This document shows positions 10,303 to 34,755 of a stretch of 64,000 nucleotides of DNA, in pieces. Source of the DNA: Polyangiaceae bacterium. GTDB lineage: Bacteria; Myxococcota_A; Polyangia; Polyangiales; Polyangiaceae. Below the pieces are notes generated by a model. The model did not search any database. It saw only the letters and a list, made by a program, of their open reading frames with translations, and was not told where the DNA came from. The first letter of the stretch is position 1, and each line of letters starts with the position of its first letter. The stretch is taken from the NCBI GenBank assembly GCA_965222375.1, contig CBDCTZ010000016.1, positions 64,001 to 128,000 on the forward strand, in the 5' to 3' direction. Position numbers and translations under genes: made by a program.

Positions 10303-12261
10303 TCAGAGCGACGATGTGGAGCGCTGACGGGTTGTTGGACGCTTCTTTTTGGCGAGGGCGGCGCTGATCAGGCTTTCGGCGGCGGATTGCGCGTCGCGAA
10401 CTTGCGGAGTGGAAGCGTCGGGTTGCAGCACGCGTCCGGTTTCGTCGAGGGCGTCGGGAAGAGAGCCGAGACCCTTGCTGAGCAGCCAGACCAAGAGCGC
10501 GCGAGTGAGGGGACCGGCGCCTGCGCTTTGCTCACTGCGCCACTCGCGCTTCAGTTGGCGGGCCACGGCCATTTTTGCGACGCCGCGGGCTCGGGCTCGG
10601 AGGGCGGAAGCTCCGGTGGGTAGCAAGTGTCGATCACGCTCGAGCGCGCGTTCTACTTCACGCAGTTGGGCGTGGGGCGGCTTCACGCCGTCCCGCAGTT
10701 GCTCGGCGAACAAGCAGACGCCGCGGTACACGGCTTTGAGGAAGTGGAAGGCGCGGTAACGCTCGGGGCCAGAGAACACGACGGCGGCGCGCGAGAGGCC
10801 CACCAGGTTGAGGATCTCCATGGGGATGGGGGCCGCGGGAGCCTTGGCGGCCTCGAACATGGTGGTGAGTACTTCGTCGCCGATCTGCTGCGAGTTGAAT
10901 TCCGATGTCGCATAAGAGAGGTAGTGCTCCGCATCCTGCAGCGCGTCGTTCTTGATGACGGTGGCGAAGTCGTAGAGTTGAAACGGATTGAGCGCGTAGG
11001 TGAAACACACGGGGCGCTCTTCGTGCCCTTGGTTGAGGCTGACGATCAGCTTTCGAGTGGCCGCGAGGGACTCGGCGGTTTCTCCGGGGAAGCCGTGAAT
11101 GAAAGAGAAGTAGGTGCCGATTCCGTGTCGAGCACAGGCCTCGAGGGCGGGACGGATCTGGGAAACCTTCGTGCCCTTCTTCATGGCGTTGAGCAGTCGT
11201 TGGTCCCCGGACTCCTGTCCGATGAAGAGCAGGCGAACGTTCGCCCGAGCCATCAGGTCGGCGCACTCGTCGTCGATGTCTGCGACCCGGGCGAAGGCAC
11301 TGATCGGCAGAGGGCAGCCGCCGCGGTCGGCGAGGCCGCGCAAGACCTCGAGCCAACGGGCGTGGGGCACCGAGGCGGTGGCATCGGCGAGATTGATCAT
11401 GCCGCTGTGGGCCAAGGCCGAACCCAGGATTTCCTCGACGGCGCGATCCGCGGGCATCACGCTGAGCTCGGCCAGAGTCCGAAAGGTACAGAACTCGCAC
11501 TTGAAGACGCAGCCACGCTGAGTTTCCACAGGCTGCATCAAGGTATGGCGGGCCAAGTCGATTGGGGGATCGATGCGGCTGGCCAGAGCCCAATTCGGCG
11601 TTGGAAGCTGTGCCAGCTCGAGGGCCTCTGCTCGACCCGTGTAGTCCAGGCCACCTGTCGGGCGGCGAATGTAGATCCCCGGGATGCGCCGGAGCGCGGC
11701 CGGATCCTTGTCGTGAAGGGCTCGCACGATGTCCACCAATCGCTGCTCGCCCTCGCCGATGCAGAACACATCGGCATCGAGAGACAGGAAGCCCTCGGCA
11801 TCCGTGGAGTAGTAGTAGCCACCCACCACGATTTGCGCCTTGGGCAGCGCATTGTGAACCATGCGGCACAGGGTGCGTAGCCAGGCGGTTTTCATCACGA
11901 AGGTCGTCGAGATCCCCACGACCTTGGGCGGATTGCGCCGCGCCGTTTCGAGGCGCTTTCGCCAAAAAGAAAGCCCTGTGACGCCGGGATCGCAGACCTC
12001 CCAATCGAGCTTTGCAGCCTCGAGGTGAGTCGCCATGGCGATGGCGCCGAGGGACCGATGGGCGACGGATGGCGCGCCAAAAATCGTGTCGTCTTCTTCG
12101 GCCTGGAGGGAGATGCGCATGCCCATGTGAGCTTCGAGCTTGGCGTGGGCCTCCATCAGAGGCATGTAGATGCGCGCGCCGGTGACTCGACGGACATGCT
12201 CGTCAAAGAGCATGTTCATGTCGGGCTCGAACGGCACGAGCAGCAATACGTCCGGCCCCAT
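10303..12261 (-). CDS. Cobalamin (B12)-binding radical SAM enzyme, paralogue A
   Basis: VVGISTTF, IVVGGYY and IGEGE in the B12 domain; ETQRGCVFKCEFC (CxxxCxxC); GQESGDQRLLNAMKKG; IHGFPGET. Confidence 0.92.
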   Translation of the reverse strand: MGPDVLLLVPFEPDMNMLFDEHVRRVTGARIYMPLMEAHAKLEAHMGMRISLQAEEDDTIFGAPSVAHRSLGAIAMATHLEAAKLDWEVCDPGVTGLSFWRKRLETARRNPPKVVGISTTFVMKTAWLRTLCRMVHNALPKAQIVVGGYYYSTDAEGFLSLDADVFCIGEGEQRLVDIVRALHDKDPAALRRIPGIYIRRPTGGLDYTGRAEALELAQLPTPNWALASRIDPPIDLARHTLMQPVETQRGCVFKCEFCTFRTLAELSVMPADRAVEEILGSALAHSGMINLADATASVPHARWLEVLRGLADRGGCPLPISAFARVADIDDECADLMARANVRLLFIGQESGDQRLLNAMKKGTKVSQIRPALEACARHGIGTYFSFIHGFPGETAESLAATRKLIVSLNQGHEERPVCFTYALNPFQLYDFATVIKNDALQDAEHYLSYATSEFNSQQIGDEVLTTMFEAAKAPAAPIPMEILNLVGLSRAAVVFSGPERYRAFHFLKAVYRGVCLFAEQLRDGVKPPHAQLREVERALERDRHLLPTGASALRARARGVAKMAVARQLKREWRSEQSAGAGPLTRALLVWLLSKGLGSLPDALDETGRVLQPDASTPQVRDAQSAAESLISAALAKKKRPTTRQRSTSSL

Positions 12262-12307
12262 GCTTGAAACATAGTGGCCGGACAGCGAAAGCGCGAGGTG
12301 CCAGGGA

Positions 12308-13669
12308 CTAGCTAGCCGGCTTTCTGCGCCGAATAACAGCGATGATGGGATCCCGGGGGCGAAGCGTGACCTGGCCGAGGGGCTGAACGGGATGGTCACT
12401 CACAGGCTCGAAAGACACGCGCTGCAGCAAGGTAGCAAGCACCATCTGGCCCTCCATGAGAGCGTAGCCGCTGCCCAGACAGCGCCGGGGTCCTTCGATG
12501 AACGGGATGAAGCCACCCCGGGGCAGGCCGGTTTCGAACTCCCTGGTCCAACGCCCTGGGCGGAACTCGTCGGGAGACTCGAAGAGTCGCGGGTTGCGGT
12601 GAATGCCGTAGATGTTGAGCACTACTCGCGCGCCCTTTGGCACGGCTACTCCCGACAGCGTCGTGGCTTCGGTGGCTTCACGCACTGTCATGAACACCGG
12701 TGGATACAGCCGCAAGGTTTCTTTGAAAACCCGAAGCGCGCAGGGCAGCCGCGGGCCGTCACTGGCGTTCGGAACACGTCCGGCCAGCACTTCATCGACT
12801 TCAGTTTGAAGCTCCGCGGCGAACTCTGGCTTCGCGATCAGACAGTGGATGGCCCAGGCCAGGGCATTTGGGGTCGTGTCCTGACAGGCGATGGCGAGAC
12901 CCACGGCCTCGTCCCGAGGCGAAGACCCGCTCGCTCGCAGGTCTTCGGCGCGCTGCTGAACCAGCACGGAAAGTAGATCTCGCACCGGCCGCCGCCCCGC
13001 CTCCTGGATCAACCGCGCGATCACGCGATCCAAAACGCGAACGGCTGCTCTGCCGCTCAGGCTGGCGCGGGATGGCAGCCATTTGCGAACACCCCGAGGC
13101 GCCCCGAGGCGTTCGTGGACGAGTTGATCGACGCGATCCACCGCCGAGATGACGTCGGAAGCCGGCCCCACGTCCTTGCCGAAGAGCGTGCGCGACACCA
13201 GCGCCAGGTTGAGCTGCAGCATCGCTTGCAGCACGTCGATGTGGGCGTCGTCCTGCCAACTGTGCTGTAAGCCCTCGGCCAGCTCCGCCATGGCGTCCGC
13301 GTAGCGCTCGATGGCGGGGCGACTGAAAGATGGTGCTAGAATGCGCCTACGCGTGCGGTGCTGCGGGCCGTCGGTCCAGCCCAGGTTTCGCCCCAGAAAG
13401 CCCGACGCCCAGCGATAGCCTTGGGTCTTGCGGAACAGTCCGCGGTCTTGGGCCAGCACGCTCATGGCGGCCTCGGGGGACGACACGACGAAGAGTGAGT
13501 CTCGCCCCGTCGAAACTCGGAGGACCGGCGCCGCCTCTGCAGCCTGCTGCAGGAAGTCGAAGGGGCGAGTGCGCAAGTTGCGTACATCCTGCAACGAGGC
13601 TCGACCCGCCAGCTTTCGACCCATGGCCGAGGATACCGACGTCCCTCGCGCAGGAGCAACCGGGCTCAC
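12308..13669 (-). CDS. Cytochrome P450
   Basis: KETLRLYPP (ExxR), FRPGRW, heme loop FIEGPRRCLG; atypical I-helix ACQDTT. Confidence 0.95.
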   Translation of the reverse strand: MSPVAPARGTSVSSAMGRKLAGRASLQDVRNLRTRPFDFLQQAAEAAPVLRVSTGRDSLFVVSSPEAAMSVLAQDRGLFRKTQGYRWASGFLGRNLGWTDGPQHRTRRRILAPSFSRPAIERYADAMAELAEGLQHSWQDDAHIDVLQAMLQLNLALVSRTLFGKDVGPASDVISAVDRVDQLVHERLGAPRGVRKWLPSRASLSGRAAVRVLDRVIARLIQEAGRRPVRDLLSVLVQQRAEDLRASGSSPRDEAVGLAIACQDTTPNALAWAIHCLIAKPEFAAELQTEVDEVLAGRVPNASDGPRLPCALRVFKETLRLYPPVFMTVREATEATTLSGVAVPKGARVVLNIYGIHRNPRLFESPDEFRPGRWTREFETGLPRGGFIPFIEGPRRCLGSGYALMEGQMVLATLLQRVSFEPVSDHPVQPLGQVTLRPRDPIIAVIRRRKPAS

Positions 13670-14952
13670 GTCGTGGGATCGCCCCGAGTGACGGTCAGCC
13701 GGTGGCCTTTGGGTGGTCGCAGGGTCAGCGCTGCTCGAGGGCGCAATCCCTGGCGTGTTGCGCCGAAGCCAACCTGCCGCAGCAGCGACGCCAGTACGAG
13801 CTGGCCTTCCATCAGCGCGAAGTGGCTTCCGATACAGCGGCGAGGACCCGCAATGAATGGGATGTACGCACCGCGAGGCAGGGTTTGCTCGAAACCATCA
13901 CCCCAGCGCTGCGGTCGGAACTCCTCCGGCTCCGAGAACAGATCTGGCCGCCGCTGGATGCCATAGATGTTGAAAATGAGGTTGGACCCAGGGCTCAGTG
14001 TCACGCCGCCAACATCGAGGCTGGTTCGCGCCTGGCGCATCGTCATGTAGGCCGGCGGATACAAACGCAGCGTCTCTTTGAACACCGCGAGGGCAAGCGG
14101 AAGCTCAGCGGCGCCGGCTGCTGACAGCGCAGTGCATTGGCGCGCTTCCCGTTGCACTGCCCTCGCCGTTTCGCTCTGCTGCGCCAGCAGGTGAAGGCAC
14201 CAAGCGAGCACATAGGGCGTCGTGTCCTGACACGCGACCAGCAGCCCCACGGCTTCATCCCGCACGCTGGAGCCAGCGTCGCGGATACGCTCCCGCGATG
14301 CCCGCGAAAGGAGTTGCCCGGAGCATTGTGCGCTGGCGACGCCGGATTGACGTAAGCGCCGCAGTAGTCCTTCGATCTGCCGCACTGCAGCTCGCGCCCG
14401 CCATGCTCGCCACGATGTCCGAGCGAGGGAGCTGTCTCCCCCCAGCCGCGCCTCGAGCAAGGCATCAACTTCCTGGACCGCACTCACGATGGTGTCTACG
14501 TCCGCGTCGGAAAGCTGACCCAATAGCGACTCGGTCACGATCGAAACATTGAGGCGCAGCATGCTCTGCAGCACATCCACGCTCGCGCCGTGATGCCAGT
14601 TGCGCGCCGCTTCTTCCGAGTGTCGGAGGATTGCCGCCGCGTAGCTCTGCACGGCGCGAGGGCTGAAGCATGGGGTCAGTGCTCCTCGCTGGCGTTGATG
14701 TGCTTGTCCTTCTGCCCACAGCAGTCCGCGCCCCAGAAAGCGGGTGGCCCGGCGATAGCGAGGGGTCTTTGCGACCGTAGCGCCGTCTTGAACTAGGAGC
14801 GCGTGCACATCCTCCGGGGCGGAGAGAACATAGGCGTCCTTCCCTTGCTGCTGAATCTTGCACACGGGTGCAATGTCCGCGGCTCGAAGGAGCAGCCCAA
14901 GGGGATCGGCCCGCAAGGCGTCGCCGGATCCGATCAGCGGAGCTGAGGACAT
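13666..14952 (-). CDS. Cytochrome P450 (tandem paralogue)
   Basis: KETLRLYPP, FRPQRW, FIAGPRRCIG; I-helix ACQDTT; GTGA overlap with the next P450; alternative GTG start at 14973. Confidence 0.95.
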   Translation of the reverse strand: MSSAPLIGSGDALRADPLGLLLRAADIAPVCKIQQQGKDAYVLSAPEDVHALLVQDGATVAKTPRYRRATRFLGRGLLWAEGQAHQRQRGALTPCFSPRAVQSYAAAILRHSEEAARNWHHGASVDVLQSMLRLNVSIVTESLLGQLSDADVDTIVSAVQEVDALLEARLGGDSSLARTSWRAWRARAAVRQIEGLLRRLRQSGVASAQCSGQLLSRASRERIRDAGSSVRDEAVGLLVACQDTTPYVLAWCLHLLAQQSETARAVQREARQCTALSAAGAAELPLALAVFKETLRLYPPAYMTMRQARTSLDVGGVTLSPGSNLIFNIYGIQRRPDLFSEPEEFRPQRWGDGFEQTLPRGAYIPFIAGPRRCIGSHFALMEGQLVLASLLRQVGFGATRQGLRPRAALTLRPPKGHRLTVTRGDPTT

Positions 14953-14997
14953 CGTCGGCCACGCTAGCTCCACACAAACGCGAGACCAAGAAGTGCT

Positions 14998-17900
14998 TCA
15001 GAACAAAGTGTAGATGTAGGGTCGAGGCTGCTCCCGCGGTGACATGGCTGCAGCCGCGGGAATCAGCGCGGCAACGAGTGCCGACAGCATGGGTTTGCGC
15101 CGAGCCTGCAGAAACGCGATCAAGCGGCGGTAATGCTTCGACTGCGGGCCGGGCTCGCGGTCGAAACCTTCGGGTAGGTGTGTGTACGGCTGCCAATGGC
15201 TCGTTGGGGTCCTGTTTGGATCGTTTGGCTCCAACGCACGAAAACAAGCTCCCGTCGGCACGACGAGGCCGTAATACGCCAACGCGGCCGCCCACGCCGA
15301 AACTCGGGAGCGCAACGGTGCTGCTTTGACTCCGACCAGAGTTCGAGCCCGCGCTGCCACCCCGGGCACCTGCAGCCCCAGGCGGGAGAAGAGAGCCGCC
15401 CCGGTGGTTCGAAGCAGCGCTGGCTGCATCTGCGGCTGCTGCAGGTCCCCGCGCGCAATTCGTCGAGGGAGCTTCTCGTAGTTCGCGCAGGCAGAGTCCA
15501 CGTCACCGGCGAGGGCCGCAGCTAACGCGCGAGCGCGCCGGACCTCGGGGTCATGCGGGCTGAGGGCCTCCGCTTGGCGCAGATACTCTTCCACTTGGCG
15601 CTGCGCGCCATCCGAGTCCCAGTTCTGCAGCAGCGCCAACGCGAACAGGTATTGGACACGTGAGCAAAGCACCGCGGTCTGAGTCGCGCTGTCCAGAGCG
15701 AACGCGCGGCGCACGTCCTCGATGTTCGGGCGCCGAAAAGCCGCTTGATGCGCAGCACCGTCGCTCAGCGCTTCGCGGAAACAGAGAGCGAGCTGTAGGT
15801 AGCCCTCCAGAGTGGGGTGACAATTGTCCCAGAACAGACCGGACTCATCCAACGCTTCGAGGAGCTGTGCACAGTCCGCGAGGGGCACGCTGAGCCTAGC
15901 GCAGACCTGTCGAATCGCGGTGTTCAACGCAGAGGTGCACCGGGTTGGCGCAGCGTCGTGGTCCCGGGCAGCTAGGAAGTGCGGCAGCGCTTCCCGCTTC
16001 CGTCCTTGAGCAGCCAGCTCCCGCGCGAGGAGGAAATGCGCCCAAGCCACACCGGGATCTACGCGCAAGATACGCCGAGCGGTTTGTACTGCCTCGTGGC
16101 TGTCGCCAGCTCGCGCGCGCTGCCGCGCGTGGGTCATCAGCGACGCGACTTGCCTGAGGCTCCCGCGCTTGGCCACGCGCGAACGATTCGGCGCCCATTG
16201 CGTCAGATTGCCCGCGGCAGTCGCCACCACGAGCCCTATGCCCTGGCGTTGCAGGTGCTCGATGCTCGCTTCGAGGTTGCGCGTGAGCCTGCGTACAGCG
16301 CGCTCGTGGTGCAGTGGCCCGACGCCAGAGGTCTGCGCTGGAGCGGGCCCGCGGCCGCGTATGAAGTCCAGAGGCGCACCCAGCGCGGATGGTTGATGGC
16401 GGAGGTACTCGTTGTGGCCGGTGTAGAGCAACACTAGAGACGCCGATGCGGGCACTTGGCGCGCAGCTTCGAGAACGGCGTCGGAATCCATCGCAGCGTG
16501 GGCCAGGTTCACCACCCGCACGGCGCGACCTTGCCTAGTGCCCCCCAGGCAGAACCCCACCAACTTTCCCAAGTCCAAGTCCGGGCCATAAGGTTCGCCA
16601 GCTGCAGTGGATCCGCCAAGAACGTAGATCGTGAAAAAGTCCCCGGGATCTTCGTCGGGTCCAAGCTCGGCTGGCGCTTGCTGATCAGGGCGTGCGATCA
16701 AAAAGCGGTCGAGGACGAGGTAGTCGAGACTGGTTCGGGTGAAGCAACGGTAGGCATCGCTGGGCGATTGCACGATGGGCTCGTCGCGCCCGTTGAAGCT
16801 GGTGTTGAGCAATACCGGGCAACCCGTGCGCTCTGCAAACCTGGAAAGCAAGCCGTGAAAGCGAGGATTGTGGTCCGGGCGCACGGTTTGAACCCGAGCG
16901 CTGTAGTCCACATGGGTAACGGCAGGCAGCTCGGAGCGCACGGCGTCGAGGCTGCGGGGAGACTCGCCGCTTTCTGCAGCGTGCTCTGAGCGAACCTGGG
17001 CCACGATGGCCATGTAGTCGCTGTCACCCTCGAGCTCGAAGTAGTCGGAAGCGGCTTCGCGCAGCACAGCGGGCGCAAAGGGCCGGAAAGACTCGCGGCG
17101 CTTGATTCGGTCATTCAGCCGCCGCCGCATGTCGGGTTCACGCGGGTCCGCCAGAATCGACCGCGCCCCAAGGGCACGGGGGCCAAACTCTGCGCGGTCC
17201 TGAAACCAACCCACCGCGCTCCCCGACTCGATCAGCTGTGCGGTTCGGTCTAACAGGGCATCCGTCGCTCCGAGTTCTTCGAAGGGGATCTTGCTGGCGC
17301 AGAGGTACTCCCGAACTGCTGCCTCCTCGAAGCGGGGTCCGAGCAGGGAACCCGCCTGGCCATCACTACCGTCCCGGAGCTCTCGTGTCTGACCTAGGCG
17401 CTGATGCCACAAGTAGAGCGCGGCACCCAGTGCGCCGCCGGCGTCTCCGGCCGCGGGCTGAACCCAGAGTCGATCGCAGACGGAATCACGCAACAGCCGC
17501 CCATTGGCTACGCTGTTTTGAGCCACTCCCCCTGCCAAGCAAAGATCACGAGTTCCGGCGGACTGAACTGCGTGACGTGCAACGCGCCGCACGACTTCCT
17601 CGGTCACGTACTGCAATGACGCGGCGAGATCCATGTGGGCAGGCGTCAGCGCAGCCTCGGGCGCACGACGCGGAATGCCCAAGTAGTGCTCTAGCTTGGC
17701 GCCCGCCATTCGAAGCAACGCCTGGTAGTCGAAATAGGCCATGTTCAGGCGAAAGGAGCCATCGGACTTGAGGTCGATGAGTTCCTCGTAGAAGCGCTGC
17801 GCAAGGCGAGGCGTGCCATAGGGCGCGAGGCCCATGACCTTGTACTCGTCACGGTTGACGCTGAATCCGAGCAGGTAGGTGATCGCCGAGTAGAGCAAGC

Positions 17901-18435: not shown

Positions 18436-18479
18436 GGGATCTCACTAGCAGTGGATATCGTCTGCACCAAGCGAGGGTG

Positions 18480-19927: not shown

Positions 19928-19993
19928 CACCATGACGCGCACGCGGCGGCGGCTGATCCAAGTACGGCACGGCAAGTCCCAAGCAGGCGCTCG

Positions 19994-24848: not shown

Positions 24849-27688
24849 GACCCAACACTGAAGTTCTGAAGCAACAAACGCGCGTCTTTCGAACCCGCGA
24901 TCACCCGCGTTTCCAAGCTGAGCGCAAGGTGCCGCCGGAACCAGTCGTGGAGCGAGAAGATCAGATCTGGTGGGTCTTGGCTGGCCGACAGCGTCTCACG
25001 ATAAAGTCGGTGCCTTCGGCCATCCACCTCGACCCACACCGCAAGCTCCAACCGAGTGCTCTCACCGCCCTCCAATTTCGGTTGGGCGCGAACGCAGGTG
25101 TCAGCGCTGACGTAGAAGGGGTAGCTGAGCGCCGCGTTCGGCGACATGGCGACATAGGACGGTCCTTCGGGGCGTGCCCAACCCTTTGGGACTCGAACCA
25201 ACCGGCGCCGCAACTTCTCAGCGACCACGGCGCGGTTGCTGCAACGATTCAGACGGGGTTTGCCAACGAACAGAAAGTCGTTTGCCGGGCTGTCTCGGGT
25301 CTCGGAGCCGAGGCGGAGCAAGACGTCCCGGTCCTTCCAGCGGTCCAAGGGCAATTCGATCTTGTGTGCCTGCTCGCCGGGCAAGACCACCTGGCGGAAG
25401 ATGACCGGACGCTGATCCGCATCGTGCACATGCACCTCTGCCAACGCACCGTCGCCTGAACCTTTGGGCATTTCGATACCCAGTTCCATGTACAGACAGG
25501 TGGAGCCGCAGGGGCGAACCGGAAAATACACTTCAGCGGGCTGCTCGGGCTTGGGCGTGGGGTGCAACAAGAAGCGCTGCTCCGTGGGTCGAACGGCAAC
25601 CCCACGCGGCATCGCGGCGCCCGACTGCACCGACTCCAACAAGTCGGCTTTCGGCGTGCAGTGCGCCTTGCGCGGCGTGACAACCTTGGTCCGTGGGGAC
25701 CAAGCCTCAGCCGCGTGAACCACGAACTCGATCTCGCTCGGTGACAATCTCCCCCGAGGCGCGAAACGCAGCCGCACTGAATCCGCTCGCGCGGGCTCCT
25801 TGCGTGCACGCGCGACTATCCAGCGCCACTCGGCGTCGACAGGGTCGACGGCCAGAGTCGCTTTTGTCCGTGTGTTGATCGCAACATCCGTCCAAGGCAC
25901 TTCAGCACTCACCGCTTTTCCGTCGCGTTCGAAGCGGTAGAAGATCTCCGGCGACGCCCCCAACATGCGCGTCAGCTCTTGGATTTCGAAACTGTGGTCC
26001 AACCACAGGAAGTCGGGCCCGGTGAGCTCTCGGCCCAGCGACAGAACCAGTTCACCAGGGACCGAAACCGTCGTCGTGCGGCCCACCTCGGCAAGGGGTA
26101 GCGACTGCCGCTTGGGAGGAAGGGGCACTTGCCTGAGGCGCATCGCGAAAGTCGCCGGCCCTAGGCGCCGCTCGACTTCGTACAGTTCGCTGATCACGAA
26201 CAGGTCTTCTCCCAAGAACCAATTCGGCTGGTCAGGGCGATCGAAGCTGCCGATCTGATACACGAAGGTGGGGCAACGCTCCTCACGAATCCGCTGGCCG
26301 AGCCGGCGCTGCTGCTCGCTGTTCCAGCGCAACGCGATGCTCGTGGGGCCCGGCAGGTCCGCTAGTGCGTGAGCCACTGAGAGCCCCGGTGACAGACTCA
26401 CGCAAGCTCCGTCGAGGGTTCGCTTCTTGTCTCGCAAGAAGGCGGTGGTCGTCGAAATGTCGGTCGCGAAGTCCAGTTGGGGCTTTCGCTCACCGCGCCG
26501 TACTTTCGACGCCTCGGCAAAGACCTTGGGACTGAGCCAGAGGTTTTCGGAGCGCGCGCCGTACCAGCCGAGTAGGAAGATGGCGGCGAGGAGCGCCGTC
26601 GCCGAGCGGGTCTTCGTCGTGCCTGCGCTGGGCCGGGCGGCGATCACGATCAGCACGCCTACCAATGGCAGCACTCCCATGAACACATGCCCGGCGTTGG
26701 GCTGTGGAATGGCGAAGACCGCGAGGGGCAACGCTCCGGCGATCCAGCACGCCTCCAACGCGCGCCGCTCTCGGGATGCGACCCCGAACAAGGCAACCAT
26801 GCAGGCGCACACCACGAGCAGGATCACATTCGCCGCATTGTCCTCTGCGGTCTTCGCGAGAGTGACTGCGTAGGACGCCGCCATGGCGCGCTGCTCCGCA
26901 ACATACTCAGTCGGACTCACACCGAGCCCAAGACCGATGGCGCACACGCCGGCGAGCCAGCCAGCCTGCGCGACGAGGTACAGCGCAAATCGCCTCAACC
27001 CAGGTCGCAACGGAAGTCCGTGGCGCCACCGAAGGAGCAGCTCGACACACGCCATCAAGCCGACGGTTCCCCCCGCCAACACCAAGCGGTCGAGGGAGAG
27101 CAGCGCTGCCACGGTGGCGACACCCGCCGCGAGGACGGCATCGCGTGCCGTGGGTCGCCGCTCGCTCGACTCACTGGGCAAGTAGAGCAGCACGTGGGCG
27201 AGCGAAAGCATCGGCCTCAGGGTCGCGACGCCGGCGCCATAGCAGAGCAGCCCAAGCAAGCCATATACAAGCAGGCGAGCGAGGGGATGCTTGGTGCTGC
27301 GCCATGCAATGACGAAGGAGAGGATCACGCCGAGGGCTTGCACCACGGCTTGCATGCCAGCGGCCGCGTGCGCTGCATCGAACGCGCCGGGCAAGGCGCC
27401 AAAGTAGGCGAGCGCTTGCCACAAGGGGCCCATGGGGAAGTGGAAGTCGCGACCGACCCATTGCCCGTGGCTAGCGTGCCAAGGCAGCGACAGCTGCCAA
27501 GAGTAGTCCACGGGGTTCGAAAGCAAGGTCCGCGAGTCCCACAGGCGAAAACGCACATAGGCACCAGCGGCGATGGCTGCGGTAGCATACAGGGAGAACA
27601 AAGCCACCGGTAGGTGACGAAGAAAGCGCCGCGCCCGCCCCAGATTCTGGCTCGGCTGCTCCGTCACACTTGTGTCCTGCTCTTTCAC
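24833..27688 (-). CDS. Large polytopic membrane protein, paralogue of the downstream gene
   Basis: DYSW...GQWVGRDFHFPMGPLW; colinear similarity with 22035..24848; start uncertain (27688 or 27730). Confidence 0.7.
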   Translation of the reverse strand: MKEQDTSVTEQPSQNLGRARRFLRHLPVALFSLYATAAIAAGAYVRFRLWDSRTLLSNPVDYSWQLSLPWHASHGQWVGRDFHFPMGPLWQALAYFGALPGAFDAAHAAAGMQAVVQALGVILSFVIAWRSTKHPLARLLVYGLLGLLCYGAGVATLRPMLSLAHVLLYLPSESSERRPTARDAVLAAGVATVAALLSLDRLVLAGGTVGLMACVELLLRWRHGLPLRPGLRRFALYLVAQAGWLAGVCAIGLGLGVSPTEYVAEQRAMAASYAVTLAKTAEDNAANVILLVVCACMVALFGVASRERRALEACWIAGALPLAVFAIPQPNAGHVFMGVLPLVGVLIVIAARPSAGTTKTRSATALLAAIFLLGWYGARSENLWLSPKVFAEASKVRRGERKPQLDFATDISTTTAFLRDKKRTLDGACVSLSPGLSVAHALADLPGPTSIALRWNSEQQRRLGQRIREERCPTFVYQIGSFDRPDQPNWFLGEDLFVISELYEVERRLGPATFAMRLRQVPLPPKRQSLPLAEVGRTTTVSVPGELVLSLGRELTGPDFLWLDHSFEIQELTRMLGASPEIFYRFERDGKAVSAEVPWTDVAINTRTKATLAVDPVDAEWRWIVARARKEPARADSVRLRFAPRGRLSPSEIEFVVHAAEAWSPRTKVVTPRKAHCTPKADLLESVQSGAAMPRGVAVRPTEQRFLLHPTPKPEQPAEVYFPVRPCGSTCLYMELGIEMPKGSGDGALAEVHVHDADQRPVIFRQVVLPGEQAHKIELPLDRWKDRDVLLRLGSETRDSPANDFLFVGKPRLNRCSNRAVVAEKLRRRLVRVPKGWARPEGPSYVAMSPNAALSYPFYVSADTCVRAQPKLEGGESTRLELAVWVEVDGRRHRLYRETLSASQDPPDLIFSLHDWFRRHLALSLETRVIAGSKDARLLLQNFSVGSCPQN

Positions 27689-27748
27689 GACGTTAGAACG
27701 GCTCGGGTGGCTTCCGGCACCAAACGGCATGCAGCAATCCGGCGTGCC

Positions 27749-28378
27749 ATGGCGCTACGGCTCGAGGATAAGCCGGAGCTCGGCGCGTACCACGTCGACT
27801 TTGCATCGATGGTGCGGCGGATGCGGGCAATCGAGGCCATTTGCGAGAAGAGCGACAGGATCCTCTTCCTCGGGGATGACGATCTCGCATCGCTAGCCGT
27901 GCATTTCTTGGGCTATCACAACCTAACGGTTCTGGATCTCGACCAGCAGCTCCTCGCAGTCGTCAAGAAGCACTCCCGAGGCCGGATCCGCACCGTCCCC
28001 CACGATCTACGCGGGGTCTATCGGGGGCGCCTTCCCCGCCTGGGCGTGAAGTTCGACTTGTTCGTCACCGACCCGCCCTACGGCGCCGACGGGCTTCGGG
28101 CGTTCAGCGGCGTCGGTCTGGCCAATCTCGCGCTGGGCGGGATGGGTCTGGTGGCGACTCCGGAACGCAAGGCACCCGTGACCAACGTCGGCGATCCGGA
28201 AACTCTGACCCACTCGCTGCAGGAGTTCCTCATCGCCAGTGGTGGGCTGCTACTCCGCGCAGACTCGGCCGCCATCCGCTCCTATCATGGCACGGTCGCG
28301 ACGATGCTTTGGTTGAAGAAGCACACGCGACGCAAGCCCCGATTCGATCTCCTAGAGGGCCCCGGTGCCTTCTACTGA
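27749..28378 (+). CDS. DUF43/BpsA-like (branched-chain polyamine synthase-like) SAM-fold protein
   Basis: ILFLGDDDLASLA, VLDLD, HDLR and FDLFVTDPPY motifs. Confidence 0.7.
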   Translation: MALRLEDKPELGAYHVDFASMVRRMRAIEAICEKSDRILFLGDDDLASLAVHFLGYHNLTVLDLDQQLLAVVKKHSRGRIRTVPHDLRGVYRGRLPRLGVKFDLFVTDPPYGADGLRAFSGVGLANLALGGMGLVATPERKAPVTNVGDPETLTHSLQEFLIASGGLLLRADSAAIRSYHGTVATMLWLKKHTRRKPRFDLLEGPGAFY

Positions 28379-29777
28379 CGAAGGCGCTGCTGACCTTCGC
28401 GGCCCCGATCCTCACGCAGAGCGCCGCTTGGAATTGCTTGTGGCCTACGCGCGGGGCGCCTTCAAACTTCTTCCTGAGCTTATCGGAATTCCCTGGCTCC
28501 CCGTGCCCGCACTTCGTGCGTTGGTGCGTCGACGGCGCAGGGCACTGGTGACGCGGGCCTTCAGAGACGTTCCTTTCTATCGAGATGCCTTTGGCTCGGC
28601 TGGCTTCGCCGAGACCGATGTTGGCCGAGCCGAAAACTTCACCCAGCTCCCTCTCCTCACGAAGGAGCATCTACTGACAGCCGGCAGCTCCCTGTTCAGC
28701 TCCGGGGCGGCACCCCGTGATCAATTGCTGGCCCGGCGCTCCAGCGGGTCCACGGGCGCACCGACGGTCGGCTATTTCGACCCTTTGCGTGAGGCTCAAC
28801 GCCGAGCTCAAGAGCTGCGCATGCTCTCTAGCCATGGGGTGCGACCGCGACACGTTCAGCTGATATTGGACGCCCCGGCACATCTGCCACCGAAGCCTTT
28901 CATCCTGCAGCGCATGGGCCTGTGGCGCCGCATACCTTATCCAGTGGAGCTCTCGCCCGCCGCGGCCCTCGACGAGATCGAGCGCATGCAACCTGAAGTC
29001 ATTCACGGCGTCTTGGCAGGGCTGCGTATGCTGGCGCTCGCAGCCGAGGCCCGCGGCGGCCTCGAGCACCGACCGCATCGCATCTTCTCTCGGGGCGAAG
29101 TCTTGGATGCACAAACGCGCTGGTTCATCGAAAACGCCCTTGGCGCCCCTCTGGTCGACTTCTACGCAACCGAGGAAACGGGGATCGTGGCCTGGGAGTG
29201 TCCCCTGGGCGGCGGATACCACGTGGACTCGGACTTGGTTTTCGTCGAGGTGTTGCGGGAAGACGGCTCCACGGCGGCGCCCGGGGAGCTTGGTGAACTC
29301 GTGCTGACGAACTTGTTTCAACACACCATGCCAATCATCCGCTACCGCGTAGGCGATATGGGTGCGCTGAGCGCAACACGGTGCCCATGCGGGCGTGGCC
29401 TACCTCTGCTCACGGAGCTTCAAGGGCGACGCTTGGACTTCATCGTCACGCCCGGTGGCAAGCTGCACGACCCCTTTCGAGTCATGGCCATATTCGAGCA
29501 CGTCTCTGGCGTTCGCTGGTTTCGCGTTCAGCAACGGTCCGTCGAACTGCTTGTCGTACAGCTCGGTTTCGAAGCCGAACTGACCCCGGAAGAGCGCGAG
29601 CATGTTCGGAAGCAGCTGCGCCTGGGGTTTGAGCGCCTGTTTCGAGAACCCATCAAGCTCGACTTCGAGGACGCCGGCGAGTTCCAGGTCCCCATGGGTA
29701 CCAAGGCGCCGTTGGTGAAAGGCCTCGGCCTCAGCCTGGAGCAGCTCGCGGAAAAGGGCTACCGCTTCCGAATCTAG
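28365..29777 (+). CDS. Phenylacetate-CoA ligase/CapK-like adenylate-forming enzyme
   Basis: VPFYR, LPLLTK, SSGSTG, YATEETG, TNLFQHTMPIIRYRVGD, GR motifs. Confidence 0.9.
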   Translation: MPSTDEGAADLRGPDPHAERRLELLVAYARGAFKLLPELIGIPWLPVPALRALVRRRRRALVTRAFRDVPFYRDAFGSAGFAETDVGRAENFTQLPLLTKEHLLTAGSSLFSSGAAPRDQLLARRSSGSTGAPTVGYFDPLREAQRRAQELRMLSSHGVRPRHVQLILDAPAHLPPKPFILQRMGLWRRIPYPVELSPAAALDEIERMQPEVIHGVLAGLRMLALAAEARGGLEHRPHRIFSRGEVLDAQTRWFIENALGAPLVDFYATEETGIVAWECPLGGGYHVDSDLVFVEVLREDGSTAAPGELGELVLTNLFQHTMPIIRYRVGDMGALSATRCPCGRGLPLLTELQGRRLDFIVTPGGKLHDPFRVMAIFEHVSGVRWFRVQQRSVELLVVQLGFEAELTPEEREHVRKQLRLGFERLFREPIKLDFEDAGEFQVPMGTKAPLVKGLGLSLEQLAEKGYRFRI

Positions 29778-29786
29778 CCGCGGACA

Positions 29787-30509
29787 TCAGCGGCGGTAGG
29801 CGACCACGATGAGAAAGCTACCGAGACTGGGCACCAACTTCGCCAACCAGCGAGACGCCCAGCGCACTTGTTCGGGTTCCCTGGGGTCGCGGCGAAAGAC
29901 CACCAGCGTGCTCGACAGCTCTTGGACGTCGAGGCCAGCCTCGGCAAGGGCCCGCTTCAACGTGCCGGGGGCGAAGGGGCGAATGTGGAGCTTCAAGTAC
30001 GGATGCAACGGTTGCACCTGCATTGGCGCGCGCCCGAGCAATAGCCGGAAGCGGTCCGGTAGGTGGGCCAGGTTCGGCGTGGTCAGCACCAGCTTGCCGC
30101 CGGGCTTCAACACGCGCCGCACCTCCGCCAAGAACGCACGAGTGTCGAATAAGTGCTCGATGATCTCGCCAGCGAAAACGACATCGAAATTACCAGCCTG
30201 TACCGGGATTTCTGAACTCACATCCCCCTTGAGGGGCGTGATGCCCCGCTCTGCGGCCTCAGCCAGTGCTTGCTCCGAAACGTCCATACCGGTGACTCGA
30301 TAGCCGAGTCGCGACAGTCGCTCACCCACTCGGCCATCTCCACAACCCAGATCGAGTAGGCGCGGCTGCCCCATTGGGTCCGCGAGGAGCTTTTCGACAA
30401 CCTGCAACCGCAGCACGTTGTCGGCATCACGCGCGAGGAAGTCGAAAGCGTTTCGTCTTCCGAACCACTCGGCGTTGTCGCCGGCGGTGTCTGGGCGCTG
30501 GGAGGTCAT
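29787..30509 (-). CDS. Class I SAM-dependent methyltransferase
   Basis: LLDLGCGDG, FDVVFAGEIIEHL, RVLKPGGKLVLTTPN. Confidence 0.9.
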   Translation of the reverse strand: MTSQRPDTAGDNAEWFGRRNAFDFLARDADNVLRLQVVEKLLADPMGQPRLLDLGCGDGRVGERLSRLGYRVTGMDVSEQALAEAAERGITPLKGDVSSEIPVQAGNFDVVFAGEIIEHLFDTRAFLAEVRRVLKPGGKLVLTTPNLAHLPDRFRLLLGRAPMQVQPLHPYLKLHIRPFAPGTLKRALAEAGLDVQELSSTLVVFRRDPREPEQVRWASRWLAKLVPSLGSFLIVVAYRR

Positions 30510-30519
30510 GACCAGTGCG

Positions 30520-31581
30520 TCAGAAGTAGAAGTCGTCTTTCGTATTCGCCAAGATCTTGCACTGGGAAGCACACTCATACACATGGTCCCTGGCGCGGCC
30601 CGCAGCAGCGCCAGTCCACATTTTGTGCAAATCCTGGCGCAGAATGTGGCCGAAGCTCTCCCACGTGTTCGGGCACATCTTGACCTGACCCTGTTCGGTT
30701 ACGAGTAGCGTCTTCAATTCGCTCTCGCAGCTCTCCAGCTTTCCAAAGGCAACCGGATCGCGGAAGTAGGCGCGCCACTGACGAAAATCGTTGTCGCTGT
30801 TCTGGATCGGATAGCCAGCCGCTTTGCGGCCCTCCAGCTCCGCCACGAACTCCATGGCTGCGTCGGGAACTGGGAACAGCGGGCTCTTCTCGAACCAACG
30901 GTCACCCTGGGGGCGTTCGCCCATGAAGAAGTCCGTGCTGGCGACGGGCTGGAAGCTGTGGCCCTCGATACCTTCATTCTTCACCCAATCCGACAGCTGC
31001 AGCAACCCGTCGAGGTTGTCTCGCATGATGATGCTGTTGACCCATACGCGCGGGTGCTCCAGCCCGAGCCGCTCCCGCGCCTCCCGGATGTGCTCGATGG
31101 CCTTCTTGGCAAGAACCCATGCGCCTTTCTTGCCGCGACTCGCATCGTGATAGGCCGCGTCCGCACTGTCGATGGACACGGCCATGAACGACAGCCCGGA
31201 GCGCACGACCCGTTCTGCCCGCTGTCGAGTGGCGATCAGCGTTCCGTTGGTGGTGACGCTCGTGGTCACGTCCAAGTCGCGCGCGGTCGCCACGACGTCC
31301 AGCAGGTCACGATGCAAGAACGGCTCACCGGCGATAAAGGAGAGGCTGAACGGCGCGCCGACAAAGCTGCGCAGCCGCCGCAGCGCTTCGCGTTTCTCGC
31401 TGAGTGAAAGCGAGGGCTCTAAGCGGTAGCTCTTGGTGCGTCGACCGATATCGCAGTGGTTGCAGGACAGGTTGCAGATCTGCTCCCACCACCAAAAGAT
31501 GCGCTCGGGCTTGGGGTGCACAGTGGTCGCAGGCGACGATCCGCCGCGGCGCAACAAGCGGTCCACAAGCACCAAAGACAT
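30520..31581 (-). CDS. Radical SAM enzyme with twitch/SPASM-like C-terminus
   Basis: CNLSCNHC, AGEPFL, TTNGT, VSIDS, HDASRG; C-terminal C...GQVKMC...CxxxC. Confidence 0.9.
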   Translation of the reverse strand: MSLVLVDRLLRRGGSSPATTVHPKPERIFWWWEQICNLSCNHCDIGRRTKSYRLEPSLSLSEKREALRRLRSFVGAPFSLSFIAGEPFLHRDLLDVVATARDLDVTTSVTTNGTLIATRQRAERVVRSGLSFMAVSIDSADAAYHDASRGKKGAWVLAKKAIEHIREARERLGLEHPRVWVNSIIMRDNLDGLLQLSDWVKNEGIEGHSFQPVASTDFFMGERPQGDRWFEKSPLFPVPDAAMEFVAELEGRKAAGYPIQNSDNDFRQWRAYFRDPVAFGKLESCESELKTLLVTEQGQVKMCPNTWESFGHILRQDLHKMWTGAAAGRARDHVYECASQCKILANTKDDFYF

Positions 31582-31587
31582 GGAAAA

Positions 31588-31616
31588 ACGGTACGAGGGG
31601 GTGGGGGCTCGGTCAA
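31588..31616 (-). promoter_or_regulatory. Internal sigma70-type promoter, leaderless configuration
   Basis: Minus strand TTGACC (31616-31611), 17 bp, TACCGT (31593-31588), 6 nt, ATG at 31581. Confidence 0.6.
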
Positions 31617-31649
31617 GCGCCGAGCCGCTTTGCGAATACCCGCAGTGAG

Positions 31650-32885
31650 CTAGAGGCGGATGCCGCGTTGTGCGAGGAAGTCGAGATAACCCGACATGCT
31701 GACGGCAATTCGCTCCTCGGAGAGCCCAAACTGACGCAAGGAGTAACGATGGGCTCCGCGGCTGTGATGCGTCGCGCGCGACAATTGTCTAGCGATACCG
31801 CGCCGCCCGGTGTCATCGAGTTCGTACCCGAAGCGATCGTAGATGCCTTCGACGACACGTATGGGGCTGTCGACCAGGTCGGAATACGCGACGTCCCAGC
31901 AGCGCTGATCTGAAATGCATCGTCGACGCGCGAGCCCACTCGCGACGAGCTCGGTCAGGGACTGCAGCACCGCACTGCCGAGCGGCGCAGGGTCGACACC
32001 ACCGAAAAAGACCTGCGAACGCGCCGCCGCATAACTGGCCGTCGACGGCACCACTTGCGCGGGATCGCGATGTGTGAACACGAAGTTCGCATCCGGGTAC
32101 ACACTGGCCAGGCTACTCAAGTGCCATAGGTGGAAACCGCCTTTCAGGACCCAATGGCGGCCTGGCCAGCGCCACTGCAGCAACCGCAGCAGAGTGCGGT
32201 GGTATTTGTAGGCTTCGCGCATGTCCTGAGCCCGGAACCACCGCTCGTAGGCAGCGCCTGCTGGTAGCAACGGATTCATGAACGAAAGGTCGAGCAGGTA
32301 GTGGCACTCCTCGGGACCGTCCGCGCGGTGGGGGTGCAGTTTCGACAAGGCCGGGTTGAGGCGCAAGCCGCGGGACACGGCTTGCCGCGCGCGCGCGATC
32401 CGTGGGTCGCGCTCCCCGAGCCCCGATTGCGGCGGCGGCGTCGGTTGCATCAGCTGCCACAACAGCGGAACGCGCACCGCCGGGTCCGCGCAGAGCAGGT
32501 GGTGCAAATGGGTGGAGCCCGTCCGAGGTAGGCCCACGATGAACAGGGGTCGTGCCACACGCTGGTCGGCGATCTCCTCGAATCTCGAAAGCCAACGCTG
32601 GACCTCGAGGCGCTTGCGCAAACACGCCAGGACGTGGGACCGCATTGCAGCGAGTCCAAAGGCGGACAAGCTCACCTCCTGGGTCAGCGCCTGCAGCAAC
32701 CTGGCCAGAGGACGGACGAAGCCGCGGTCCCCATAGTCCGACAGCCCGGTCTGCGCTTCGGCCGCACGAAGAAGTCCTTCGAGATCCAGCTGCCGCCGAA
32801 GCAGCGGGCGCACCAGCACCCCGGTGGCATTCATGCCGCGCACGAACAGCGGCATACGCAGTTGCTCCAGAGTCGTTGGCGACAT
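31650..32885 (-). CDS. PAPS-dependent sulfotransferase (mycobacterial Stf-like)
   Basis: PLFIVGLPRTGSTHLHHLL (5'-PSB loop), WVLK, FVFTHRDP. Confidence 0.92.
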   Translation of the reverse strand: MSPTTLEQLRMPLFVRGMNATGVLVRPLLRRQLDLEGLLRAAEAQTGLSDYGDRGFVRPLARLLQALTQEVSLSAFGLAAMRSHVLACLRKRLEVQRWLSRFEEIADQRVARPLFIVGLPRTGSTHLHHLLCADPAVRVPLLWQLMQPTPPPQSGLGERDPRIARARQAVSRGLRLNPALSKLHPHRADGPEECHYLLDLSFMNPLLPAGAAYERWFRAQDMREAYKYHRTLLRLLQWRWPGRHWVLKGGFHLWHLSSLASVYPDANFVFTHRDPAQVVPSTASYAAARSQVFFGGVDPAPLGSAVLQSLTELVASGLARRRCISDQRCWDVAYSDLVDSPIRVVEGIYDRFGYELDDTGRRGIARQLSRATHHSRGAHRYSLRQFGLSEERIAVSMSGYLDFLAQRGIRL

Positions 32886-32895
32886 GACGATTCTG

Positions 32896-34755
32896 CTACT
32901 GAACGGGGGCGTCTCCAACTACGTGAAGCTTGCGGTATCGGCGATCCACGCCCGCGAGGAGGCGCTCCGCGTGCAACGCCGCGCCGGTCCGCCGCGCCGA
33001 TGTGTGCACACGCGGCGTGAGGTACCAAAGCAGCGTCTCAGTGAGCGGCCCCGTTGCACCTGGACTCGTTCGCCACTCCCGAGCCAAGCCGCGAATCAAC
33101 ATGCTCTCGACGCGACTGCGCAGCGATGCGCGACGAGATGGGCGCCGCTCGAAGGGTGCCAGCAGGGTTGGCTTGAGTGCCTCGAGCTCTGCCCGGTCGA
33201 TGGGTTTACCAAATACGTCGCGCCCGATGAACAGCGCCACGCCGCACTCGAGGGCCTTTGCCCAGCGAAAGATGTCGCCGCGCGACGACGACGCAGATAT
33301 CACCGACGTAGGAAGCGACAGTGCTCGCTGGAACACGCTGGCGGCAACCGGCGCATGCGGGATGCGACTCGTGTGCAACAACGTCAGCAGGATCTCCCTG
33401 CACACCACCGAGATATCCATGTCCCCGCTGGAGTACCCAAAGTAGTGGGTCGAACCCTCGCTCAGCTCGGGGTCCGACGCGATCGCGGCATAGTCCTGCA
33501 AGGCGAAGGGATACAGCACGTAGCTGAACGCCGTCGGATGGTCCGGACAGCGGGCGTTCACCCGAGCGAGCAGCGACCGGGTGGCATCGAGGGAAGCCGA
33601 TGTTTCACCAGGAAACCCGTGAATCAGACCCAAAGTCACGGTAATTCCCGCGTCACCCAACGCGTCTAGCGCCGGCTGAAACTGCTCGAGCTTGGTGCCC
33701 TTACGCATCAGATTCAGCATCCGCTGGTCACCGCTTTCCTGACCGATGAAGACGTGCGCGACGCCCGCCCTGGCCATTCGATTGACCGTGTCGTCGTCCA
33801 AATCCGAGGCTCGGCCGAATGCGCCGAGCTTCTTGCCCAACTCTGCGTCAGCACACTGGTCCAAGAAAGCGCGCCACCGCGTTCGTGGCGCCGTCGCCGT
33901 CGCGTCATAGAGCTCCACGTAGGAAGTAGGCAGCCGCGCGGCTCGAAGCGCGGCTGCTTCGGGGCTCAAGGCAGCGGAAGTCGGAAGCGTTCGATAGGTG
34001 CAGAACGCACACATGAAGCCGCAACCGCGCTGCGTCTCCAGGCCAGCGTAGGGAAGGCGCGCGGGCTCGTGAGCCGGAGAGATTCTCGAACTGATGGCAA
34101 AGTCCGGTTCCGAGACTTCCTCCAAGAAGAGCCCCGGCGGAGTTCCCGTGTGCTCTAGTTGATCTGCCGCGCTGCGAAGGTACAATCCTGGAATCGTCGC
34201 CAAAGATTGGCCACGCAAAACCCGCCGAACCAGCTCGGGAAAGCGCGTTTCGCCCTCGCCCACGAGGTACACGTCAGCGTCCAACTCGAGAAAGCCCTGA
34301 GTATCCGTGGTGTAGAAATAGCCGCCCACCACGAGGACCGCGTCCGGGAAATCTCTGCGAACCAGGCCCAGCAGTGCGTCTAGCCAAGGGCGACTGGTCA
34401 TGAAGGTTGTCGACACACCAACGCACTTCGGCTTCCGCCGCGCCAACACCGAAAGCGCTTTCGACCATTGCCGCAAATCCCAAGAACCGGGGTCCAGCGC
34501 TTCCCAGTCCAGACCGGCAGCCTCGAGCTGCGTCGCCAAGGCGACGGCCGTCAACGAGCGGTGCGGTCCTGGATCGAGGCTCTGCCCGGCAATGCTTGGA
34601 GCGGCATCGAAGCAGACGCCCAGGGCAGCCTCGAGCTCTCGCGCCGCGGAAGCCAGCGGCGCCGCCAAGTGAGCGCCGGTCGTCTTGCGCAGGGCGGCGT
34701 CCAGCACGTAGCCCGACTTGGACTCGAAGGGCACCAACAACAGCACGTCCGACAC
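32896..34755 (-). CDS. Cobalamin (B12)-binding radical SAM enzyme, paralogue B
   Basis: VGVSTTF, VVGGYFY, VGEGE; ETQRGCGFMCAFC; GQESGDQRMLNLMRKG; TATACT 7 nt upstream of the GTG. Confidence 0.92.
   Translation of the reverse strand: MSDVLLLVPFESKSGYVLDAALRKTTGAHLAAPLASAARELEAALGVCFDAAPSIAGQSLDPGPHRSLTAVALATQLEAAGLDWEALDPGSWDLRQWSKALSVLARRKPKCVGVSTTFMTSRPWLDALLGLVRRDFPDAVLVVGGYFYTTDTQGFLELDADVYLVGEGETRFPELVRRVLRGQSLATIPGLYLRSAADQLEHTGTPPGLFLEEVSEPDFAISSRISPAHEPARLPYAGLETQRGCGFMCAFCTYRTLPTSAALSPEAAALRAARLPTSYVELYDATATAPRTRWRAFLDQCADAELGKKLGAFGRASDLDDDTVNRMARAGVAHVFIGQESGDQRMLNLMRKGTKLEQFQPALDALGDAGITVTLGLIHGFPGETSASLDATRSLLARVNARCPDHPTAFSYVLYPFALQDYAAIASDPELSEGSTHYFGYSSGDMDISVVCREILLTLLHTSRIPHAPVAASVFQRALSLPTSVISASSSRGDIFRWAKALECGVALFIGRDVFGKPIDRAELEALKPTLLAPFERRPSRRASLRSRVESMLIRGLAREWRTSPGATGPLTETLLWYLTPRVHTSARRTGAALHAERLLAGVDRRYRKLHVVGDAPVQ

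Follow-up and report, generated by a model that had tools for sequence, protein, structure and literature searches.

The stretch of DNA analysed here, a 64,000-nucleotide window of a Polyangiaceae bacterium genome (contig CBDCTZ010000016.1, positions 64,001 to 128,000), contains a dense run of 15 genes that an earlier note, made from the sequence alone, had read as a single tailoring pathway. The region is instead a mosaic island, in which swappable add-ons surround a core of six genes encoding two membrane proteins (mem1 and mem2), a BpsA-like protein, a CapK-like ligase, a class I S-adenosylmethionine (SAM) methyltransferase and a twitch-type radical SAM enzyme. Only these six genes are co-conserved, and a close relative does not carry the second P450 gene (P450b) or the carbamoyltransferase gene of the run. 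On balance, we favour a lineage-restricted cassette that would decorate a surface glycan via the six-gene core, with exchangeable add-ons; its chemical steps are all ones that we infer.

Site comparison among five congeners delimits a genomic island of ~26 kb (8657..34819). The site is empty in three of the five (G001, G003 and G005), where the DNA methyltransferase gene left of 8657 abuts the gene at 34820, and since these flanks are direct neighbours there, the stretch between them is an island. Its left limit lies at ~8657, so that a DUF4160/DUF2442 pair belongs inside. At the same site G002 carries only rSAM2 (one of the two B12 radical SAM genes of the island), the twitch, methyltransferase, capK and bpsA genes, mem2 and mem1, in this order, together with an unrelated GH123-like gene, that is, a different passenger. 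In G004 the array mem1-mem2-bpsA-capK-methyltransferase-twitch-sulfotransferase-adenylylsulfate (APS) kinase occupies another genomic site, and the rSAM2 orthologue lies elsewhere. Neither the GC content of the island nor that at third codon positions (GC3) is atypical of the genome, and the donor was therefore probably of similar composition.

The 15 genes (10303..34755) are contiguous and dense, as the earlier note had it, with spacings of -16 to 75 bp, and fall into five transcription blocks: rSAM1-P450a-P450b-carbamoyltransferase (minus strand), flippase-GMC-partner (plus), mem1-mem2 (minus), bpsA-capK (plus) and methyltransferase-twitch-sulfotransferase-rSAM2 (minus). The enzyme families listed in that note find support in Pfam, namely two B12 radical SAM enzymes, two P450s, a carbamoyltransferase with a GDSL/TPR C-terminus, a GMC oxidoreductase, BpsA_C, an AMP-binding (PaaK-like) ligase, a class I methyltransferase, a radical SAM enzyme with a weak SPASM/twitch match and Sulfotransfer_3. 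It also holds that polyketide synthases (PKS), nonribosomal peptide synthetases (NRPS), cyclases and soluble glycosyltransferase families have no match among the island proteins scanned. Nor is a convincing precursor of a ribosomally synthesized and post-translationally modified peptide (RiPP) evident: no precursor-like open reading frame was seen, and the intergenic gaps are at most 147 bp except for 9971-10302, which holds a dispersed repeat with seven further matches in the genome.

The order of the six core genes is kept in six genomes (G000, which holds the window, G002, G004, G127, G197 and G216) and in the metagenome contig L067, the core carriers representing two genera and three genomic sites. 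A second metagenome contig, L068, is 98-100% identical to G216 and was not counted as independent. The BpsA-like protein, the CapK orthologue and the mem profile, the latter built from the carriers themselves, were each searched in 301 Polyangiaceae genomes (completeness of 80% or more, taken from a larger group), with scoring limited to the few best candidates of each genome, and all three match the same 8 genomes. The twitch enzyme was found in 6 of these 8 carriers and in none of the other 293 genomes; G001 and G003 possess a more distant version of the core without it. A CapK-like gene lies at most three genes away in 13 of the 14 mem clusters examined. For the core genes, dN/dS against G002 is 0.13-0.24, rough values with dS near saturation; serS gives 0.11 and the GMC gene, compared with L067, 0.44. 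The core is under purifying selection. Among the metagenome loci with a BpsA-like gene, 78 of the 80 kept (of 154 confirmed) contain no other island gene, many of the contigs being short. No description of the core turned up in the literature searched, whose coverage excludes most subscription journals, and no curated family matched this combination of distinctive genes above cut-off.

Random accretion at an insertion hot spot, without any shared function, would fit a site that is empty in three of five congeners, the different passenger in G002 and the presence of two broken genes, and the earlier note had named it as one outcome that would overturn its pathway. As an account of the whole locus we regard it as very improbable. 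Since the conserved order of the six genes extends over two genera and three sites under purifying selection, this explanation is refuted for the core but largely holds for the flanks.

The proposed role of the core depends above all on the two membrane proteins. Mem1 (22035..24848, minus strand) would comprise, judging from a structure model and Atlas, a GT-C-fold membrane domain (residues 1-500) and periplasmic β-sandwiches, two of which are CBM51-like. Mem2 (24833..27730, minus strand) is a mem1 paralogue (29% over 909 aa) to which homology attributes the same fold, and its true start may lie further in. Neither mem1 nor any of the 62 relatives scanned has a Pfam match. The model of mem1 (mean predicted local distance difference test score, pLDDT, 87.4) supports the GT-C call that Pfam does not: in structure comparison, residues 1-500 align with AglB at Z 15.6 (root-mean-square deviation, rmsd, 5.1; 408 residues aligned) and with ArnT and AftA at Z 15.3 and 15.2 (rmsd ~5 over 376-427 residues for the three), and residues 654-784 align with CBM51 at Z 12.8 (rmsd 2.1; 115 aligned). 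When Foldseek was run with the whole model, the best E-values went to β-sandwich proteins with low TM-scores, with AftD and AglB among the matches. Atlas relates the membrane part to RgtA/B/C/D-like glycosyltransferases (0.98-0.99) and gives, for the CBM part, a lead only (0.86-0.89). Mem1 is thus predicted to be a GT-C transferase with CBM51-like domains. D49, which follows directly on the first membrane helix and lies in the first external loop, is invariant in all 19 rows of the alignment, and we infer a catalytic role for it. The mem family has 313 representative relatives at E <= 0.001 and no Pfam model.

Two further mem pairs are encoded in the genome. One lies among GT2, GT4, nucleotidyltransferase, epimerase and Wzm/Wzt genes and the other beside a flippase homologue; the modules that we labelled g29 adjoin GT4 and GH57. 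The pair at ~985-1022 kb of C14 (L007, L008) has capK-like genes on both sides and a different B12 radical SAM gene nearby. The pair at ~2152-2162 kb of C16 (L009, L010), near a flippase homologue, is accompanied by proteins with weak NAS/spermine-synthase matches; given these matches, SAM-dependent aminoalkyl transfer may recur beside the mem family.

The surface-glycan branch of the earlier proposal gains from these data. It is supported by the GT-C and CBM51-like folds, by the polysaccharide-flippase match and the sugar-dehydrogenase type of the GMC enzyme (both described below), and further by the mem paralogues in the GT2/GT4/Wzm-Wzt locus and beside a flippase homologue. A different acceptor is conceivable, in that the GT-C pair might act like an oligosaccharyltransferase and the core build a modified sugar for proteins. 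AglB, STT3 and PglB occupy much of the mem1 fold list, tied with ArnT and AftA, and GT-C enzymes do occur here as a tandem pair. Protein glycosylation is nevertheless a rather unlikely reading, as the paralogous mem pairs have a Wzm/Wzt locus and a flippase homologue, respectively, for their surroundings, and the CBM51-like domains suggest a glycan acceptor.

The remaining core genes point to the chemistry that may precede such a transfer. The BpsA-like gene (27749..28378, plus strand) encodes a 209-aa protein that matches PF01861 above cut-off and keeps the GDDD and DPPY motifs. GDDD (G42-D45) is invariant in all seven BpsA-like rows, and the aspartate of DPP is kept in five of the seven. In BpsA itself, GDDD positions the aminopropyl group of decarboxylated SAM (dcSAM), and a five-residue acidic tail at the C-terminus serves as carrier (PMC12979288). 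The match of the island protein spans residues 170-268 of the 371-residue chain in 5XNC. One Asp and one Glu are the acidic residues of its own tail; the acidic aminopropyl-carrier cluster and the N-terminal part are absent. The likeness to BpsA thus consists of the PF01861 match and the GDDD motif; the differences are its length (209 aa versus 371), the lack of an N-terminal part and of an acidic tail, and a location that, in the loci examined, always adjoins a CapK-like gene. In G216 the BpsA-like gene contains two TAG stops (C9:180362-180919) and is intact in the near-identical L068 (3986-4615), a difference due to assembly error or strain variation.

The CapK/PaaK-like adenylate-forming ligase gene (28365..29777, plus strand; AMP-binding, PaaK-type) overlaps the BpsA-like gene by 14 bp, and its product resembles PaaK, AjiA1 and related ligases. 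The methyltransferase gene (29787..30509, minus strand) is assigned on Pfam and synteny, and the twitch-type radical SAM gene (30520..31581, minus strand) on a weak SPASM/twitch match. The latter is the most conserved core gene (61-77%), and its nearest solved structure is cytosylglucuronate decarboxylase (E 2.5e-11). The genome encodes a SAM decarboxylase and APS kinases.

Combined, these predictions outline how the glycan-decorating cassette might operate. In the cytoplasm, the BpsA-like enzyme would aminopropylate an amine with dcSAM as donor, and the CapK-like ligase would adenylate a carboxylate, most plausibly that of a uronic acid, and form an amide with the aminopropylated amine. The methyltransferase and the twitch enzyme would modify the same sugar unit. 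The lipid-linked unit would then be flipped, in this strain by a flippase encoded elsewhere in the genome, and mem1 and mem2 would attach it to a glycan that their CBM51-like domains hold as acceptor. The genes for the sulfotransferase and rSAM2 share the operon of the twitch and methyltransferase genes, and their products are likely to add sulfate and a C-methyl group to the core product. The rSAM1-P450-P450-carbamoyltransferase block may act on the same product or on another substrate.

The two B12 radical SAM genes, rSAM1 (10303..12261, minus strand; 652 aa) and rSAM2 (32896..34755, minus strand), are an accessory and a semi-core gene, respectively. Their products contain B12-binding and CxxxCxxC radical SAM domains and have full-length homology (~600 aa) to CAQ43073 (B9ZUJ4) of Chondromyces crocatus, which we take to be CndI. 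CndI reportedly converts a methoxy into an ethoxy group. Identity to CAQ43073 is 44% for rSAM1 and 38% for rSAM2 over ~600 aa with the same domain order, and these values place both enzymes in the CndI family, with C-methylation as their putative activity. In G131, a gene with the same length and N-terminus as CAQ43073 adjoins NRPS/PKS genes and a halogenase gene matching 3E1T (E = 0), the latter structure being presumably that of CndH; our use of the name CndI for CAQ43073 follows from this neighbourhood. CndI is described as a single radical C-methylase for chondrochloren B (PMC9204698). The island enzymes differ from it in that rSAM1 and rSAM2 have no NRPS/PKS context and neither is sister to CndI in trees. 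The NRPS/PKS and halogenase of the cnd cluster are present in G131 and L026 and absent among the island proteins.

That the two genes are twin bookends, as had been proposed, does not hold. They lie on the same strand and are 39% identical, and rSAM2 groups with its orthologues from G002 and G004. A twin duplication was rejected by the approximately unbiased (AU) test (p = 4e-17; 19 rows, LG+G4), in agreement with a FastTree phylogeny of 62 rows. The rejection of a grouping of rSAM1 with rSAM2 indicates separate arrivals. rSAM2 heads the twitch-methyltransferase operon in G002 and is unlinked in G004. The HpnR equivalog gives 37.2 and 51.2 bits for the two enzymes against a cut-off of 650. An aminopyruvatide-type RiPP system was likewise rejected: ApyD scores were 65.5 and 75.2 against 750 and ApyO scores 153.7 and 148.7 against 525, with no precursor-like open reading frame seen.

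The CndI family occurs in 9 of the 301 Polyangiaceae genomes, comprising 4 of the 8 core carriers and 5 of the 293 others. In G127 a CndI-like gene and a capK paralogue are two genes apart, and in G025 one has a flippase homologue nearby; the context in G023 is a different one. In G120 such a gene directly precedes a capK-like gene that is two genes from a carbamoyltransferase gene. This G120 locus (L062:35-19637) encodes SxtJ, a carbamoyltransferase, a membrane protein, a capK-like protein, a CndI-like radical SAM enzyme, a YfhO-like protein, a GT2 and a second B12 radical SAM enzyme, and is an independent envelope locus with a similar toolkit and no mem pair. An alphaproteobacterial metagenome-assembled genome (L018:5036-18350) contains two tandem pairs of CndI-like radical SAM and P450 genes, an AMP-binding/reductase fusion and another B12 radical SAM gene, making it a candidate lipid-tailoring cluster.

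Such pairings bear on the possibility that the product tailored by the locus, or at least by its rSAM1-P450 block and the ligase, is a diffusible small molecule or a lipid with its scaffold genes elsewhere. CndI-like genes directly precede P450 genes in L018 (twice) and L023 and are convergent with one in Chondromyces, the CapK-like protein has the PaaK- and AjiA1-type relatives named above, and the rSAM1-P450 block is transcribed away from the flippase. We nonetheless find this explanation unlikely. The P450s of L018, L023 and Chondromyces are just 25-32% identical to those of the island, an orthologue of the ligase accompanies the GT-C pair in each of the 8 carriers, no carrier locus examined has a linked scaffold gene, and the relative X5 (~88-91% identical) does not contain half of the rSAM1-P450 block.

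The P450 genes themselves, P450a (12308..13624, minus strand; 438 aa) and P450b (13666..14952, minus strand; 428 aa, 42% identical to P450a), are accessory genes assigned by Pfam. For P450a one match stands at 82%, on an 18-kb contig of a close relative, and the other 74 at no more than 40%; the contigs with the rSAM1 and mem1 relatives have the same length as this one. Both island P450s and the copy of the relative carry an ACQDTT I-helix motif, in which Cys replaces the usual Gly; 54 of 76 matches have AGHETT. With this I-helix the pair is a candidate new P450 family. Over the first 50 columns P450a is 50% identical to the copy of the relative, as against 80-96% over the rest, which suggests a recombination point.

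The adjacent carbamoyltransferase gene (14998..18435, minus strand; accessory, Pfam) encodes the N and C domains in fusion with a GDSL/TPR region, which ends in a weakly DUF5989-like tail. None of the 17 other matches to the GDSL/TPR C-terminal region carries a carbamoyltransferase domain. The fused tail matches DUF5989 weakly (E 0.054; 14 bits against 27), has no SxtJ match and yields nothing significant in BLAST; the separate SxtJ and DUF5989 genes of congeners pass both cut-offs. Like SxtI, NodU and CmcH, the island enzyme has both catalytic domains, and it is 53-54% identical to enzymes of congeners that sit with separate SxtJ, DUF5989 and SGNH genes; it differs from those three in its fusion to the GDSL/TPR region and in being strain-specific. 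A contig of X5 runs from 13293 through 381 different letters into 18401 and so bypasses P450b and the carbamoyltransferase gene. The left block has no DNA match in any of the five congeners except unlinked carbamoyltransferase and radical SAM homologues, and in five other core carriers P450 homologues reach at most 36% and carbamoyltransferase genes are unlinked. The rSAM1-P450-P450-carbamoyltransferase block is dispensable and strain-variable.

The sulfotransferase gene (31650..32855, minus strand; Sulfotransfer_3), whose product would use 3'-phosphoadenylylsulfate (PAPS), is semi-core: it was found in one of these five carriers, G004, in the same position alongside the twitch and methyltransferase genes, there preceded by an APS kinase gene and with P450 homologues unlinked. 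This distribution bears on the original proposal of one pathway in which all 15 genes methylate, hydroxylate, sulfate and carbamoylate a sterol, hopanoid or ether lipid. The dense packing of the genes is in its favour, as is the presence of CYP46A1 among the solved relatives of P450a (E 4e-37), and P450 and sulfotransferase pairs act on lipids elsewhere. We consider a single lipid pathway scarcely tenable all the same, given that the sulfotransferase travels with the twitch-methyltransferase pair in G004, where P450 homologues are unlinked and at most 36% identical, and that gene content varies between strains ~90% identical. A sterol or hopanoid scaffold is contradicted: no SQHop_cyclase_C match exists in the genome, and the HpnR scores are far below the cut-off. 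The check for shc/osc that the earlier note had suggested returned zero PF13243 matches in G000 (98% complete), with the control positive in 2 of 14 genomes.

The block between the carbamoyltransferase gene and mem1 bears signs of damage. The Wzx-like flippase is a pseudogene (18480..19927, plus strand; 482 codons, read with X at the breaks), interrupted by a TAG at 18753-18755 and a frameshift near 19063. Polysaccharide-flippase homology was rightly recognized (PF01943, Polysacc_synt; E 3.2e-7, 30.5 bits against a cut-off of 28.2, N-terminal piece only), but the gene is not intact. Both lesions are reproduced without difference in contigs of the runs X1 and X2, which makes an assembly error unlikely, though these contigs possibly derive from the source study of the window itself. 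X5, from another study, has one extra base at 19063 and is in frame there. Recoding of TAG was rejected as an explanation for in-frame stops, because this codon terminates 97 of the 344 genes called over a 600-kb sample.

The following gene (20003..21568, plus strand; the start could be 19994) encodes a GMC oxidoreductase of the FAD-glucose/fructose dehydrogenase type, as judged from homology and alignment, and is followed by that for a small twin-arginine-like partner (21565..22038, plus strand; 157 aa, no Pfam match) that has the same position in L067. The family and the partner were thus correctly called in the earlier note, but the catalytic residues are missing. A His/Asn pair is catalytic in FAD sugar dehydrogenases of this group. 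In the island enzyme Ser463 and Ser503 stand where five of five aligned homologues have His and four of five have Asn; the bases are confirmed by a contig of X3, identical over 19567-23170, and the enzyme is likely to be inactive. Its best solved matches are FAD glucose and fructose dehydrogenases (6A2U and 7W2J; E 2e-45 and 3e-39), with which it shares a Cys cluster motif and a small twin-arginine-like partner, and from which it differs in the replacement of His/Asn by Ser and in having no cytochrome subunit inside the island. One of 250 other genomes of the order matched the GMC protein at E <= 1e-40, at 31%; L067 carries both the GMC gene (46%) and the small partner in the order found in the window.

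Several observations weigh against the glycan-decorating cassette. The eight carriers belong to only two genera and are not independent, so that co-occurrence is linkage, not repeated independent origin. GT-C similarities of Z ~15 at rmsd ~5 cannot separate glycan, lipid and protein acceptors in a predicted fold, and helical bundles can reach ~13. The BpsA-like protein, whose sequence includes no acidic carrier tail, would resemble BpsA in function at best and is not a member, and its DPPY motif would also fit an N-methyltransferase. The closest solved relatives of the CapK-like protein are aromatic-acid ligases. CndI-like genes occur also in NRPS clusters (two Chondromyces genomes) and as orphans. 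Within the island, a soluble glycosyltransferase that could load a lipid carrier is missing, and P450s are, to our knowledge, untypical of glycan loci. Finally, with a broken flippase and a GMC enzyme without catalytic residues, the cassette may be partly decaying in this strain.

In its operation, the system appears to resemble known GT-C envelope-modification systems. The features that it has in common with ArnT, AftA/AftD/Emb and AglB/PglB are a membrane domain of predicted GT-C fold joined to a periplasmic domain, carbohydrate-binding modules as appendages (AftD is one of the Foldseek matches) and a linked flippase. The system differs from them in that the mem proteins are ~10% identical, have no Pfam family and form a tandem pair, and in that their locus has no linked donor-loading glycosyltransferase and is linked to BpsA-like, CapK-like and radical SAM genes. 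A bolder version, which we put forward as doubtful, is that of an undescribed envelope system in which a truncated aminopropyltransferase of BpsA type, together with a ligase of CapK type, would produce an aminopropyl-amide sugar for installation on the cell surface by the GT-C pair. CndI-type B12 radical enzymes, repeatedly recruited to loci of this kind, would turn its O-methyl into an O-ethyl group or attach a C-methyl.

A few features of the island and its surroundings remain to be mentioned. An in-frame TAG interrupts a DUF4160-like gene, which precedes a DUF2442-HTH gene (8830..9970, plus strand; Pfam); the two are passengers, skipped by another contig of X5 (joint 8657-9963), and are likely to be a broken toxin-antitoxin pair. 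Only 44 and 18 bp separate the divergent starts at 18435/18480 and 27730/27749, and ~3 bp in G004, too little space unless promoters lie inside genes or some starts are further in. On the right flank, 34820-36258 encodes an acidic low-complexity protein and a small cytochrome c; as these are present in the empty-site genomes too, the cytochrome gene is not an island gene. A tRNA-Ser(TGA) gene is located at 53541-53631, ~19 kb from the island, whose own ends have no tRNA gene.

What had been proposed as a 15-gene pathway shrinks to a conserved, selected six-gene unit. If the cassette reading is true, chemistry would be assigned to a GT-C family without a Pfam model, to CapK-like ligases and to short BpsA-like proteins, and the locus would illustrate how myxobacteria diversify their surface through the exchange of tailoring genes. 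Known from a single natural-product cluster, the CndI family seems to have found further use at envelope loci. Were the bolder envelope system to prove correct, it would entail B12 radical alkylation of a surface glycan and would provide a first function for the CapK-like and short BpsA-like proteins.

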